Positions 1-42,815 of a stretch of 42,815 nucleotides of DNA are shown here, piece after piece. A program made the translations under genes and the position numbers. How positions within the stretch are numbered: the first letter of the stretch is position 1; the number at the start of each line of letters is the position of its first letter. The DNA is from a virus (Duplodnaviria > Heunggongvirae > Uroviricota > Caudoviricetes). The notes beneath the pieces were generated by a model. The model was not told where the DNA came from. It searched no databases and saw nothing but the letters and a program-made list of their open reading frames with translations. The DNA lies in IMG/VR virus record IMGVR_UViG_2630968533_000007, positions 1-42,815 of that record; one strand, 5' to 3'.

Positions 1-242
1 TTAATGGTGGGCTTTTTTATGCAAAACCTGAACACCCTGCGGTATTCCCCTGGCATTATGACTTTCGCGTTTAACCAACAGCCAAACCAGCAAACACGCC
101 ACCACAGGCACAGCAAAATCCATCAGGCTTGCCACACCCCATGCGTGCGGCTCAAAGCTGCCCCGCCATGGCATATTAATCCGCTTGCCATTTTCGAACA
201 GCTGATTGGTTTAGTCCGGTGTTTTCCTGCTTGCACTTAAAA

Positions 243-377
243 ATGAGCAGATGGGAAACTCTCGAAATGGTTCGTCGATATGCTCACCTTTCAGTCAGGC
301 ATTTCACCGCGCACGCGAGCAAAATCAAAGGCACAAGAGGAGAACGTAGTTTACTTAAATGTGAGATAACTTATTGA
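243..377 (+). pseudogene. 3'-terminal remnant (~44 codons) of a phage-type tyrosine integrase gene
   Basis: Frame 243-377 encodes ...[13 protein letters not shown]...; 262-290 is identical to the 3' end of the intact int gene (41221-41249), then the sequence diverges; nothing integrase-like upstream. Confidence 0.5.
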
Positions 378-383
378 TTTAAA

Positions 384-429
384 TGGTGCCGATAATAGGA
401 GTCGAACCTACGACCTTCGCATTACGAAT
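384..429. repeat. attL: direct repeat of the 3' 46 nt of tRNA-Thr (near-identical block 367-429 matches 41355-41417)
   Basis: tggtgccgataataggagtcgaacctacgaccttcgcattacgaat present at both 384-429 and 41372-41417; the left copy lacks the tRNA 5' half. Confidence 0.8.
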
Positions 430-968
430 TATAAGAATCCGCTTCTAATTCAAAGCATTACCCCATCAACACTGCGCTCACACGTCCCACCACATCAAAA
501 CATGTAAAGCCTTGCAAGCCATTGCGAGGCCTTATATGTCTCAGTTTTGTCCCACCTTGTATTACGACTTGCATAGCCAATGAAGATAAACGTAACGACA
601 AACGGCACTGCAGTCTTCTTTTCTTTCACGACTTCCCCACACCCAGCATGCATACCTTTCTGCCACAACTGTAGTGAATGTCTGTTATGAGCGAAATATA
701 GTCATTGACTACCGAATCTCTTTTCGCCGAAACGCGCTACTAAATAGCTAGCGCGTGCGCAATGGCACGTTAGTGCTGATATACGTCAGGAGTAAAGCGT
801 GATGTAAATTTTTCTGATGAATTTTCAGAATGTATCATCCGGGCTTACCGATGGCAGTGTCGTTTCGGCTCAAAAAGGTGTGAAATATAAATAGCAGCGC
901 TGATGTTTAAATAATTATCAAGTCTGGCATGATGAGAGAGAAACTTAACTTATGCGAGGATCGCAAGT

Positions 969-2339: not shown

Positions 2340-2480
2340 TAGCGCTTTAGTCGCACGGCACGCCTGTGTGCCAGCGTGGGCCCATAGCCGCTTTAATCGC
2401 CGTGCAGAATGCAGTTTTCAGGTAACTTCAGAGAAACAAGTGATCTCATTTCGTTGTATTTATTAGCTGCGGAGTCATTA

Positions 2481-3533
2481 ATGGAAAGAATCAAGAGGAA
2501 TCCCGAACGATTTGAAGCCTTTGAGCTTTTTTCCTCGTTGGGCCAGATCTATAATTACGATATTAAAAACCCCGAGCACCAGGATGACTTTATACAAAAG
2601 GTCACCACGTCATTAATCGCTTCCCATCAGAATCCAATTCTGCTGAACGGGAAAAGAATAGAAAACCTATTTAAACACGTTTGCGCCGCACTGAACCACT
2701 GCCAGTTTCTTAAACAGGAAGACGCCGGAGACTTGATGTCAGCCGATCCCGATCTGGTGGCACCTGACTATCGCATTATACTGAAGGATCGCCGTCAGAT
2801 CTTTGTGGAAGTAAAAAACTTTAACGCGGATGACGTGGCTGACGATTATCGCCTGAAGAAATCGTACAGTGATAAGGTTGAAAAGTACGGTGAGCTCCAT
2901 GGTATTCCAGTTTATTATGCCATCTACATCAGGATGCTGCGCCGGTGGGCGCTGGTTGCACGCTCCTCAATGAAGGAGCTAGAGCGTGAACATACCTTGA
3001 CGCAGGCCTCGGCGCTCGCAAAAAGTGAGATGTACCTGCTGGGCGACCTATCGATAGCAACAGAACCCGATCTGGTTTTTGAGCTTATCCCCGACCGGAC
3101 CAAAGAAGTTTCAGTTAGTCCCGAAGGCATCGCCCATTTTACAATTGGCGAGATTAAAATTTACTGCAATGACAGACAAGTAACGGATAAATTTGAAATG
3201 AACACGGCGTTTCATCTGATGCGCTACGGAGAGTGGCTCTGCCCCGGATCGGAGGCAATATTCACTGATGGTCAGCTTGAGAGCATCCGATACACATTTT
3301 CCCCGGAAGACGACGAAAATTACAAAAGACAGGGTTTCGACTTTATAGGTACGCTGAGTTCGCTGGTCACGTCGGCCTTTAACGAGCAGACTGTACACGA
3401 CAGCCAGATCAGGTCAGTTGACACCCGGCAGAATGTCAGACTTTTCACGGTAACCATCCCTGATGATTACAAAGGGGGAGGCCTGCCTCTGTGGCGTTTC
3501 TCAATGCGGCCAAACTATGAATTTACCGATTAA
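2481..3533 (+). CDS. Hypothetical protein, possible PD-(D/E)xK nuclease-like partner of the FRG protein
   Basis: Same strand, 141 bp after the FRG gene; GGAG site 6 nt before the ATG at 2481 (the open frame extends up to 2409); segment PDYRIILKDRRQIFVEVK resembles a D...ExK active-site arrangement. Confidence 0.4.
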   Translation: MERIKRNPERFEAFELFSSLGQIYNYDIKNPEHQDDFIQKVTTSLIASHQNPILLNGKRIENLFKHVCAALNHCQFLKQEDAGDLMSADPDLVAPDYRIILKDRRQIFVEVKNFNADDVADDYRLKKSYSDKVEKYGELHGIPVYYAIYIRMLRRWALVARSSMKELEREHTLTQASALAKSEMYLLGDLSIATEPDLVFELIPDRTKEVSVSPEGIAHFTIGEIKIYCNDRQVTDKFEMNTAFHLMRYGEWLCPGSEAIFTDGQLESIRYTFSPEDDENYKRQGFDFIGTLSSLVTSAFNEQTVHDSQIRSVDTRQNVRLFTVTIPDDYKGGGLPLWRFSMRPNYEFTD

Positions 3534-34568: not shown

Positions 34569-35510
34569 TCACCCCCTGAATCCTGCCGGGATCTGGCTGT
34601 AGTCCACGTTGTCGTAACTGGCTTTGAAGTACGGGTCTTCGCGTTTTTCGGTGTACGTGCTGACGGACGGCGATAAGCGCAGGGAAAGCTCATCCCATTT
34701 TTCCCGCAGCTTCGACGGGCTGAGCACGTTACGGCACCAGAACGGATCGCGACTGACGCGGCTGTACATCTCGCAGATTTGTTTATGAGTACGACCATCC
34801 TGCACACACATCAGGCGAATTTCGTTTGCCCAGGCTGTCCAGTTCGGTTCTTTGGGACGAACCACCTCGCCGTCACATTCGGCGGCCTGCTCGTACAGGG
34901 CGATGATTTTTTTCCAGAGCCACTGTGCGCAGGTCAAATCATCCTGCGTTCCCCACTGGCGCTTTTTAGGGCTGAATACAACCGCATCAGGATGGCGAGT
35001 TAAAAACTCCTGTTCAGCCGTCTGCGTGTCCGGTTGCGAAGCGTCCGGACGAGAAGTTTTTTTATCTGACGGATCATGTTTTGATTTTACTGACGGATCC
35101 CCGCCAGATTCTGACGGGTGAAAAACCGCTTTTTTGCCAGATTTCGACGCATCAAATTTTGACGGGTCAGATTTTGATGCGTCAGATTTTGACGGGTCAG
35201 AATCTGACAGTTGAGAAAATGCCGCTGCCTGAAGCTTCGCAACGTTAAGCTGATAAACATTCGACGCATTGCGGTTACCTTGGCGACGCGCCTTACGCGT
35301 TAACCAGCCTTCTGCTTCCAGCCGTGCGATAGCCGTTCTGACGGTACTCATCCCCGCGCCAATCTGACGGGCAATGGTTTCAATTGATGGCCAGCACACA
35401 CCTTCGTCATTACTGAAATCAGCCAGGCGGGCCATAATTGCCACGCTGGATAATTTCATGCCTGACGCAGCGCAACCATCCCATACATAGCCGGTTAATT
35501 TAGTGCTCAT
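34569..35510 (-). CDS. Replication initiator (O-like) with N-terminal winged-helix domain and embedded origin iterons
   Basis: N-terminal HTH segment; tandem 15-bp iterons inside the coding region produce the SKSDxSKSD peptide repeat; GAGGT site before the ATG. Confidence 0.6.
   Translation of the reverse strand: MSTKLTGYVWDGCAASGMKLSSVAIMARLADFSNDEGVCWPSIETIARQIGAGMSTVRTAIARLEAEGWLTRKARRQGNRNASNVYQLNVAKLQAAAFSQLSDSDPSKSDASKSDPSKFDASKSGKKAVFHPSESGGDPSVKSKHDPSDKKTSRPDASQPDTQTAEQEFLTRHPDAVVFSPKKRQWGTQDDLTCAQWLWKKIIALYEQAAECDGEVVRPKEPNWTAWANEIRLMCVQDGRTHKQICEMYSRVSRDPFWCRNVLSPSKLREKWDELSLRLSPSVSTYTEKREDPYFKASYDNVDYSQIPAGFRG
35064..35213. repeat. Putative replication origin iterons (about 8 copies of a ~15-bp unit, 5 in tandem)
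   Basis: Copies of cagattttgacgggt-like units at 35064, 35085, 35105, 35138, 35153, 35168, 35183, 35198. Confidence 0.7.
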
Positions 35511-39967: not shown

Positions 39968-40317
39968 TGGAGCCATACAGCCTCACACTCGATGAGGCCT
40001 GTCATTTTCTCAAGATATCCAGACCGACTGCCATTAACTGGATACGCACAGGGCGTCTTCAGGCAACACGCAAAGATCCCACTAAGAATAAATCTCCTTA
40101 CCTCACAACACGACAAGCCTGCATTGCGGCTCTTCAGTCTCCGCTGCATACTGTCCAGGTGAGCGCGGGTGATGGCATAACAGAGGAAAGAAAATGTCAC
40201 TCTTCCGCAGAGGTGAAATATGGTACGCCAGTTTCACATTGCCGAACGGTAAAAGATTTAAACAGTCTCTTGGAACAAAGGACAAAAGGCAGGCGACAGA
40301 ACTCCATGACAAGCTAA
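39967..40317 (+). CDS. xis: Excisionase-like DNA-binding protein
   Basis: [31 protein letters not shown] immediately upstream of and overlapping int; GAGGTG site before the ATG. Confidence 0.55.
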
Positions 40318-41357
40318 AGGCTGAAGCATGGCGGGTCAGCAAACTTGGTGAAATACCTGATATAACGTTCGAGGAAGCGTGTGTCAGGTGGCTTGAAGAG
40401 AAAGCACATAAAAAATCACTGGACGATGACAAAAGCCGGATCGGATTCTGGCTTCAACATTTCGCAGGAATGCAACTAAGAGACATTACTGAATCAAAAA
40501 TTTATTCAGCAATGCAGAAAATGACGAACCGGCGTCATGAGGAAAACTGGAAACTCAGGGCAGAAGCATGCAGAAAAAAAGGGAAACCTGTTCCAGAATA
40601 CACGCCAAAACCAGCGTCCGTTGCAACGAAGGCTACGCATCTTTCATTTATAAAGGCCCTACTAAGAGCCGCAGAGCGTGAATGGAAAATGCTGGATAAG
40701 GCACCAATTATTAAAGTGCCTCAACCAAAGAATAAACGGATCCGCTGGCTGGAGCCCCATGAAGCACAAAGGCTGATTGATGAATGTCCGGAGCCATTAA
40801 AGTCTGTTGTTGAATTTGCACTGGCAACAGGCTTAAGACGCTCGAACATCATCAACCTTGAATGGCAACAAATAGATATGCAGCGCCGGGTGGCATGGAT
40901 AAACCCGGAAGAGAGTAAATCAAACCGCGCAATTGGCGTTGCGCTGAATGATACTGCATGTCGCGTATTGAAAAAACAAATCGGGAATCATCACCGTTGG
41001 GTATTTGTGTACAAGGAAAGCTGTACCAAACCAGACGGAACGAAAGCGCCAACAGTAAGGAAGATGCGGTATGACGCAAACACAGCCTGGAAAGCGGCGC
41101 TGAGACGGGCTGGTATTGATGATTTCAGATTTCACGACTTGAGACACACCTGGGCAAGTTGGCTGGTTCAAGCCGGAGTCCCGTTGTCAGTGTTACAGGA
41201 AATGGGAGGCTGGGAGTCTATCGAAATGGTTCGTCGATATGCTCACCTTGCACCTAATCACCTTACCGAACACGCACGGCAAATAGACTCGATCCTGAAC
41301 CCATCGGTCCCAAATTTGTCCCAGTCAAAAAATAAGGAAGGTACTAATGATGTGTAA
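40194..41357 (+). CDS. int: Site-specific tyrosine integrase (lambda-type)
   Basis: 387 aa with C-terminal ...[10 protein letters not shown]...[15 protein letters not shown] catalytic region; ends 14 bp from the tRNA. Confidence 0.9.
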
Positions 41358-41371
41358 CTTATTGATTTTAA

Positions 41372-41447
41372 TGGTGCCGATAATAGGAGTCGAACCTACG
41401 ACCTTCGCATTACGAATGCGCTGCTCTACCAACTGAGCTATATCGGC
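41372..41447 (-). tRNA. thrW: tRNA-Thr (anticodon CGU)
   Basis: Minus-strand sequence gccgatatagctcagttggtagagcagcgcattcgtaatgcgaaggtcgtaggttcgactcctattatcggcacca folds as a cloverleaf with CGT anticodon and encoded CCA. Confidence 0.92.
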
Positions 41448-41492
41448 CCTGAAAGGACATGTTCACGAACGTGAATCACGGTGGACAAGGTT

Positions 41493-41557
41493 AAAACTAA
41501 CCGGGCGATGCGTCAATGGCCTTGTGAATCAAATGGCTACTTTTGCATCACCCGGTT
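41493..41557 (-). terminator. Long hairpin plus T-run downstream of proA
   Basis: Arms 41499-41511 and 41545-41557 are complementary (12 of 13), followed on the minus strand by a T-run. Confidence 0.45.
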
Positions 41558-41561
41558 TTAT

Positions 41562-42815
41562 TTACGCACGAATGGTGTAATCACCGATGCCGATCCACTT
41601 GTAAGTGGTCAGTGCTTCCAGGCCCATCGGGCCACGCGCGTGGAGTTTTTGTGTGCTTACCGCCACTTCCGCGCCCAGTCCAAACTGGCCGCCGTCGGTA
41701 AAACGCGTAGAGGCGTTAACGTAAACAGCGGATGAATCTACTTCATTAACAAAACGCTGGGCGTTGCGCATATCGCGGGTCAGGATCGCATCGGAGTGTT
41801 GCGTGCCGTGTTCACGAATATGGGCGATAGCATCGTCAAGATCGCTGACAATTTTGACGTTCAAGTCTAATGACAGGAACTCATCGTCATACTCTTCGGC
41901 TTTAACAGCCACCACCTTCGCGGGGCCTGCCTGCAACTGCGCCAGCGCAGCAGCATCTGCGTGTAACGTCACGCCACTTTCCGCCATTTGCTTGCTTAAT
42001 GCGGGCAGGAAGCTATCTGCGATGTTTTTATTTACCAGCAACGTTTCTACCGTATTACATGTGCTCGGTCGCTGAGTTTTCGCGTTGACGATCACTTTTA
42101 ATGCTTCAGCGATCTCTGCGCTTTCATCAACGTAAATATGGCATACGCCTATACCACCAGTGATCACCGGAATTGTCGACTGTTCGCGGCACAGTTTATG
42201 CAAACCAGCCCCGCCGCGCGGGATCAGCATGTCGATGTATTTATCCATACGCAGCATTTCACTGACCAGCGCACGGTCAGGATTATCAATCGCCTGCACG
42301 GCACCCGCCGGTAAGCCACAGGATTTCAGGGCGTCCTGAATCACTGCCACCGTTGCCGCGTTAGTGCGACACGTTTCTTTGCCGCCGCGCAGGATCACTG
42401 CGTTACCTGTTTTCAGGCACAGCGAAGCGACATCAACCGTCACGTTCGGGCGCGCTTCATAAATCACGCCAATAACCCCCAGCGGTACGCGACGACGCTC
42501 CAGACGCAGGCCACTGTCCAGTACGCCGCCATCGATTACCCGCCCCACCGGATCGGCGAGATTGCACACCTGGCGCACATCGTCGGCAATGCCTTTCAGC
42601 CGTGCGGGCGTCAGTGCCAGACGGTCAAGCATCGCTTCGCTAAGGCCATTGGCACGCGCGTCAGCAACATCCTGGGCGTTAGCGTTGAGGATGATTTCGC
42701 TTTGTGCTTCCAGTTCATCGGCGATTTTTTCCAGCACGCGATTTTTTTCGCGGCTGGAGAGTTGCGCTAATTTATAAGAGGCTTGCTTCGCGGCAATGCC
42801 CATTTGTTCCAGCAT
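41562..42815 (-). CDS. proA: Gamma-glutamyl phosphate reductase
   Basis: 417-aa product [38 protein letters not shown]... recognised as enterobacterial ProA, full length. Confidence 0.95.

Follow-up and report, generated by a model that had tools for sequence, protein, structure and literature searches.

Introduction

To whom does the short, integrase-like DNA that borders a prophage at the thrW locus of E. coli belong: to the prophage itself, to the ancestral chromosome or to an earlier visitor? The question is raised by a stretch of 42,815 nucleotides (IMG/VR record IMGVR_UViG_2630968533_000007, Caudoviricetes; the whole stretch is called the window below), which carries the E. coli thrW locus in an orientation that is flipped with respect to K-12. 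A sequence-only reading of this DNA had pointed out that the left copy of the tRNA 3' end is preceded by the end of a second integrase gene, and had concluded that thrW was used repeatedly and that the first 240 bp may come from an older element. The locus is well known in this respect: thrW ranks with the tRNA genes of E. coli that are targeted most often, and the vat island lies between yagU and proA (PMC7545054; PMC6592367). Since the hotspot status of thrW has been described (PMC7545054) and the integrase stub is already annotated in RefSeq, the novelty of the observation as such is low. What we add here is the exact anatomy of the relic (its junction, its lesions and its class), the proof from empty sites and a pattern of two alleles.

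Results

Limits of the resident prophage

ARAGORN called a single intact tRNA gene in the window, the tRNA-Thr(CGU) gene thrW at 41372-41447 (-), which is followed on the tRNA-side chromosomal flank by a 417-aa ORF (41562-42815, -) annotated as proA in matching genomes. The resident integrase gene (40194-41357, +) converges on the thrW 3' end and encodes a protein of 387 aa with 100% amino acid identity to the Int of the Shigella phage SfIV, 89.9% to P22 Int and 56% to HK75 Int; its PF00589 domain spans residues 184-355 (E=3e-48). The 3' 46 nt of thrW (41372-41417), which form the attR core, were retrieved by repeat finding in an identical copy at 384-429 (-), the attL core. This displaced copy consists of the 3' part of the tRNA alone, from the anticodon loop to CCA, and was not called as a tRNA by ARAGORN. 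It is equivalent to ptwF of K-12, whose region it matches, and is the reverse complement of the 46-bp core ATTCGTAATGCGAAGGTCGTAGGTTCGACTCCTATTATCGGCACCA published for SfI, SfII, SfV, SfX and P22 (PMC3636060).

The SfIV virion genome (KC814930) has int, the 46-bp core and a match to window 430-554 (97.3%) in one contiguous run, its attP, so that both prophage ends are joined in the free phage. This contiguity places the limits of the resident prophage at its two cores, 384-429 and 41372-41417, with the SfIV-type attP arm at 430-554 as its left end. The arrangement is like that of the Int-attP system of SfIV, SfI, SfV and P22, in that Int is identical to that of SfIV, no base of the core departs from the published sequence and each end of the prophage is matched by an attP arm.

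Two direct repeats surround the prophage. By repeat finding and pairwise alignment, the first (367-429 and 41355-41417) extends over 63 nt with one mismatch, A at 381 against T at 41369. The mismatch falls in the 14 nt that separate the int stop codon from the tRNA end (370-383), a spacer that otherwise is common to the resident attP arm. The SfIV attP has T at the position equivalent to 41369 and the empty-site genomes described below have A, as at 381, which puts the crossover of the resident phage inside 382-429. The second repeat covers 85 nt (241-325 and 41200-41284) at 74% identity, and within it the 29 nt at 262-290 are exactly those at 41221-41249. Between this 29-nt block and the first repeat, 291-366 can hardly be aligned to the resident int, the overall identity being 75% and the gaps large. 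The alternation that had been reported earlier, with identity over 262-290, divergence over 291-366 and identity again from 367, is thus found as described apart from the one mismatch. The left fragment is not identical to int on realignment, which rules out a simple att duplication.

A stub resembling HK75-class integrases

Alignment to full-length integrases identified 201-369 (+) as a pseudogene stub that comprises the last 66 of the 386 codons of an HK75-class thrW integrase. Its residues are equivalent to HK75 Int 321-386, and positions 200-202 correspond to Ser321. The stub is therefore longer than the roughly 44 codons first proposed: 201-242, previously thought to hold nothing integrase-like, is also integrase-derived, its origin being hidden by two stop codons and a 2-bp deletion. 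Four lesions can be distinguished, namely the in-frame stops TGA at 203-205 (Trp in HK75) and TAG at 212-214 (Gln in HK75), the deletion of 2 bp within 239-242 and a net deficit of 29 bp near 326-330. Since this deficit shifts the frame, the original stop codon of the stub is the TAA at 367-369, in the same position as in the resident int. In the identical copy of this region in NZ_CP027447, the NCBI pipeline PGAP annotates the equivalent of window 215-369 as 'integrase; frameshifted; missing N-terminus'.

The stub retains homology to the C-terminus of tyrosine recombinases, including the segment with the catalytic tyrosine (..RYAHL..). The complete PF00589 catalytic domain is absent: the HDLRH box is gone, and the reading frame is broken by the two in-frame stops and by two frameshifting deletions. 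A Pfam scan of the 44-aa stub translation gave no match, the fragment being too short. In BLASTP, the translation of 243-374 has 21/30 identities with HK75 Int 336-365 (E=1e-12) and 17/28 with resident Int 337-364 (E=2e-10), and the likeness of the stub to integrases is not due to chance.

At the nucleotide level the stub is identical to the HK75 int in 163 of 186 positions (87.6%) and to the full-length int of strain 2017.15.02CC in 85.5%; its identity to the resident int is 75%, with large gaps. The match to HK75 runs past the 3' end of int into the post-stop spacer TAACTTATTGATTTAAATGG and the thrW core. Searches of the phage collection with the stub returned 43 records, all of them with thrW-type integrases and including HK75, mEpX2, HK542, HK446, mEp213, mEp043 and SfX; matching records annotate their attP as similar to thrW and ptwF, and in 18 phage records the match extends over at least 80% of 197-384. 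The integrases of the seven phages just named are the closest full-length relatives of the stub and have a similar geometry, the stop codon of the HK75-type genes lying 14 nt from the tRNA end, as in the stub. Unlike them, the stub keeps the last 66 codons only, has been inactivated four times and carries a P22/SfIV-type patch at 274-284. These comparisons support the earlier claim that the stub is the remnant of a second integrase, related to the resident one yet distinct from it, and point to the HK75/mEpX2/SfX class. The closer match to HK75 int than to the resident int (87.6% against 75%) indicates that the divergent stretch 291-366 represents a different class within the family of thrW-specific integrases and not a diverged copy of the resident gene.

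The 29-bp block that is identical to the resident int (262-290, +) encodes ...EMVRRYAHL... with the catalytic tyrosine, and is the point at which the two stub alleles described below switch. Within it, positions 274-276, 281 and 284 are of the P22/SfIV type, not of the HK75 type. An IMG/VR search for an intact int with the exact 26-mer that crosses the boundary between this patch and the HK75-type part found none; its two matches are the stub itself beside yagU, at the ends of predicted prophage contigs. Separately, 207-289 matches features annotated as 'integrase' with about 81% identity at another chromosomal locus, far from thrW, in several genomes; these presumably represent a family member that uses another att site.

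A phage-gene fragment fused to the stub

The DNA to the left of the stub is of phage origin too. Positions 61-200 (-) are the 3' fragment of a lambdoid tail-region gene of the phrog_1443 family, which encodes 97 aa in the form of ev243 gp25 and whose 5' half is lost here. Within this fragment, 68-200 is 86-88% identical to L008 5998-6130 and to 6001-6133 of L009 and L012, and is matched in 47 phage records; the ORF at 1-174 (-) aligns with the phrog_1443 profile over positions 61-96 out of 97 (E=1.4e-12). In lambda-like phages and prophages, the 97-aa gene (e.g. ev243 gp25) is located after the side tail fibre genes. The suggestion that the first 240 bp derive from an older element is thereby substantiated.

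The alignment switches from the phage gene to int at ...CGAACA|GCTGATTGG, where the blast limits stand at 200. The deletion junction at 200/201 thus fuses the 5'-truncated phage gene (-) back to back with the 5'-truncated int (+), and the same junction is present in SCU-172, ATCC 25922 and GN06098. As in a collapsed prophage, remnants of both ends are preserved and point outward, with the 3' end of phrog_1443 on the minus strand and that of int on the plus strand. A 27-mer across the junction had no match in GTDB at one genome per species, a result that does not imply absence outside the E. coli collection.

Further left, 1-60 separates the phage-gene fragment from the flank on the yagU side and is absent from K-12; homology to K-12 ends at window position -53, where K-12 has yagP and the pao operon. 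The left end of the window has an identical copy in NZ_CP027447, in which yagU, ykgJ and the ecp operon lie directly to the left, with yagU ending 215 bp short of window position 1. Between yagU and the phage-gene fragment, a GC-rich, terminator-like hairpin (GCCCACC-TTAA-TGGTGGGC) with a T-run behind it lies across the start of the window (L001 11990-12020; window -10 to 20).

A second thrW fragment or distal att copy was sought in the 12 kb to the left (L001, L010 and L003), and nothing came up beyond chance matches of up to 12 nt, a negative result that weighs against the reading as a collapsed prophage. Extension of the window to the left, which had been proposed as a check for further remnants, brought to light a vestige of a tail fibre assembly (tfa) gene about 1 kb away. 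This vestige (L001 10986-11086, about -1014 to -914 in window positions) lies between ykgJ and yagU and is 78-81% identical to lambdoid tfa genes.

The stub at empty sites and beside other tenants

We rebuilt the empty site by joining window 1-429 to 41418-41837 (849 bp) and searched it in 5,426 complete E. coli genomes. A single place covering at least 80% of it was found in 82 genomes, and at least 37 genomes have it in one piece with 100% identity over all 849 bp. In IMT16316, for instance, the order is ecpE-ykgJ-yagU-[integrase pseudogene]-thrW-proA-proB. The stub also flanks tenants that are unrelated to the resident prophage: a retron-bearing prophage in NZ_CP027447, islands with a P4-like int in SCU-172 and GN06098, and the vat island in ATCC 25922. 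Its position beside an intact thrW at the empty sites, together with its position beside these other tenants, shows that the stub predates the resident prophage and rules out the resident phage as its source. The comparison of the locus across strains called for earlier gave about 80 empty-site genomes that carry the stub. The sequence-only reading had also held that a flank conserved in strains with an empty thrW site would speak against an older element. The flank is literally conserved in such strains, but the relic is merely fixed in those lineages and is not core DNA of the whole species, K-12 homology stopping at -53.

Serial occupation of thrW, which the earlier note had claimed, or tandem occupation is directly visible in strain 2017.15.02CC, where an island and an int stub are followed by a P22-like prophage whose terminal, full-length HK75-class int abuts a thrW fragment, then by a lambdoid prophage with an int of the resident type, and finally by thrW and proA. 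In the triple thrW array of NZ_AP027818.1 (3734558-3820190; L013/L014), the island at the start carries Zorya and precedes the int stub, the P22-like prophage, the thrW fragment, the lambdoid prophage and thrW.

In K-12, the thrW pseudo-tRNA ptwF, at the far end of the cryptic prophage CP4-6, corresponds to this displaced 3' fragment of thrW and likewise borders the thrW island on the yagU side; next to it, about 75 bp from the 3' end of an HK75-class int survive (89% identity in the match to window 330-429). The K-12 stub is much shorter than that of the window, has yagP and the pao operon as neighbours in place of the phrog_1443 fragment and retains bases that are deleted in the window stub; its tenant is an island with a P4-like int (intF), not an SfIV-like phage. 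In tandem arrays at tRNA hotspots, of which CP4-6, the vat island, PAI III536 and the Sf phages are examples at thrW, reuse of the att site leaves partial tRNA copies and integrase remnants at the internal borders (PMC7545054, PMC6592367). Unlike in those arrays, the earlier element at the window locus has shrunk to about 370 bp.

Two alleles of the stub

The window-type allele is present in 175 genomes, counted as those with a single place covering at least 80% of 197-384. About 1,100 further genomes, among them ST131, UTI89 and ATCC 25922, match 197-289 only, at 95-97%. Stubs of this B2 type have the same left part, the same 200/201 junction and the same 2-bp deletion, and their match to the window stub ends at 289; from the 29-bp block on, they continue as an int end of the SfIV/P22 type, from which they diverge by about 5%, and carry a stop that arose by a CAA-to-TAA change. 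A composite of window 1-290 and the DNA from 41250 through thrW to proA is the product to be expected if the stub and the resident int undergo homologous recombination, and it was found in one piece in 18 genomes, with 100% coverage and about 95% identity. This finding supports an exchange through the block. We infer that the 3' part of the stub was exchanged in this way at least once, in one direction or the other, when a tenant was lost through RecA or when the sequence was converted. The B2 type has the look of a product of such recombination.

Discussion

Our analysis showed that the integrase end beside attL belongs to a relic whose left half is a fragment of a phage tail-region gene, and that this relic stands beside an intact thrW in strains that lack the prophage. 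Small corrections of coordinates aside, the original observation is correct, and so is the interpretation that was put on it. We consider it highly probable that 61-429 is what was left when an earlier lambdoid prophage at thrW, or a tandem array at this site, collapsed, and that an SfIV-like phage later integrated beside it. The earlier element would have had a tyrosine integrase of the HK75 class, the 3' end of its int reaching the 46-bp att core; an int that runs up to the att core is the arrangement of all phages of the P22, HK75 and SfIV types. An internal deletion, from the 5' half of the phrog_1443 tail-region gene to int codon 320, would then have fused two outward-pointing gene ends at 200/201 beside thrW. 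As the stub decayed, it would have gained its two stop codons and two deletions and become the normal attB flank in part of the species. The later arrival of an SfIV-like phage, by Int-mediated recombination within the 46-bp core (crossover in 382-429), would have left the stub and the old tRNA 3' end as attL, 40,988 bp from the rebuilt thrW. The 29 bp that the stub has in common with the int of such a tenant can serve as a target for homologous recombination, by which the tenant would be deleted and the 3' part of the stub rewritten.

The simplest reading of the two halves is that of a single prophage with its interior deleted, because the two outward-pointing gene ends would be the two extremities of one lambdoid prophage. 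It is also conceivable that the halves stem from two elements of a former tandem array, joined by a deletion across an internal att junction, an explanation that we hold to be rather improbable. Tandem arrays do exist at thrW; HK75-class integrases occur in HK97-like and P22-like phages that have no phrog_1443, a gene typical of lambda-like phages with side tail fibres; and collection phages that do have phrog_1443, such as ev243, possess an int with a weak match to the stub (75% over 85 nt). The back-to-back, outward orientation, however, is exactly the one expected if the gene ends mark both extremities of a single lambdoid prophage, and lambdoid modules reassort freely, ev243 itself pairing phrog_1443 with an int of the same broad family. 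A very unlikely explanation is that the stub was kept for a function, be it as an element for thrW 3' processing or termination, as a small ORF (219-377, 52 aa) or as a set of Int arm-binding sites. Its 100% conservation in at least 37 genomes and the occurrence of some form of it in roughly a quarter of complete E. coli genomes would be in agreement with such a role. Against it, the alleles differ completely over 291-366, with different stops and frameshifts, so that they have no conserved ORF; only about 75 bp of the stub survive in K-12; and 1-289 diverges by about 8% between lineages, which is above our own, unmeasured, estimate for E. coli core DNA. A scan of 1-1000 for promoters and terminators found nothing inside the stub and no such site in 1-430 on either strand. 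With no site of this kind, no ORF common to the alleles and most of the stub lost in K-12, we see no sign of a function of its own. Lastly, the idea that the fragment was made by, or brought with, the resident prophage, through an extended att duplication or a partial duplication of int, has next to no probability in spite of the 63 nt and the perfect 29-nt block that it has in common with the resident int end, since 291-366 belongs to another integrase class, no piece of int is contained in 430-554, which is the arm of the SfIV attP opposite int, the stub also flanks unrelated tenants, and the empty-site genomes already refute it.

The stub bears in several ways on how the locus is read. It pins down where the resident SfIV-like prophage starts on the left (384-429) and shows that what lies further left is not prophage cargo. 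It also records at least two earlier phage visits at thrW in the history of the lineage. The direct repeats around the prophage, the perfect 29-bp block and the 63-bp repeat, may offer a RecA-dependent and Int-independent route to prophage loss. The two stub alleles look like the states before and after the use of this route and could provide a natural marker of past occupancy for the history of thrW islands. Beyond bookkeeping of this kind, the practical weight of the stub is small.

A bolder extension, which we put forward as a tentative idea with the balance against it, is that the relic forms one end of a much larger and ancient lambdoid relic that includes the adjacent 'core' genes, yagU occupying a moron slot and having been domesticated from a thrW prophage. 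In addition, the stub may be a rewritable record, its 3' part overwritten when tenants were lost by RecA recombination through the 29-bp block, which would explain the existence of two alleles. In L001, the order of tfa fragment, yagU, phrog_1443 fragment, int stub and thrW fragment is colinear with that of phage ev243 (tfa, moron, gp25, then int), a moron being an accessory gene carried by phages, and the spacing is almost equal (1082 and 1130 bp, respectively).

Other traces of phage DNA were seen in the same neighbourhood. YagU (L001 11172-11786) matches phrog_25162 over its full length (E=3e-115), and a yagU-like gene with 78% nucleotide identity is present in two Klebsiella prophage-derived 'phage' records, which could reflect either imprecise prophage boundaries or real carriage by phages. 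Between ecpE and ykgJ (L001 10502-10551) there is an element of about 50 bp that is 77-85% identical to prophage-internal sequences, with relatives at L008 4731-4780, L005 7027-7074 and L001 15058-15110. Homology between ompW prophages and the ykgJ/ecpE region has been described as 'attB-in-PP_2' (PMC8112680), and the 50-bp element is probably this homology. The intergenic region between yagU and ykgJ encodes the sRNA EcsR2, which reportedly arose from a degraded phage tail fibre gene (PMC4350180; bioRxiv 10.1101/2021.10.18.464853). Like the stub, the EcsR2 locus is a phage-gene vestige in this neighbourhood, about 1 kb left of the window; unlike the stub, it lies outside the window and is also conserved in genomes of the K-12 type. 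The literature that we found on EcsR2 reports no link to the thrW stub.

On the other side of attL, the resident prophage differs from SfIV in its cargo. The slot next to attP holds gtrABC in SfIV and an FRG-domain gene, a candidate defence gene, in the resident prophage. The latter (969-2339, +) encodes a protein of 456 aa that matches the PADLOC candidate defence family PDC-S15 (E=8e-99) and is followed in the same slot by an ORF of 374 aa (2409-3533, +) for which searches of Pfam, PHROG and PADLOC gave no match. Other strains have a retron Ec67-type reverse transcriptase (NZ_CP027447) or a type II restriction-modification system (2017.15.02CC) in this place. Because its contents vary in this manner from strain to strain, the slot beside attL looks like a variable slot for defence cargo. 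Towards the other end of the prophage, 35138-35212 contains at least four direct repeats of 15 bp (similar to CAGATTTTGACGGGT) within an ORF of 313 aa (34569-35510, -) that has a repetitive SDxSKSD stretch; the repeats look like origin iterons inside a lambdoid replication-initiator gene.
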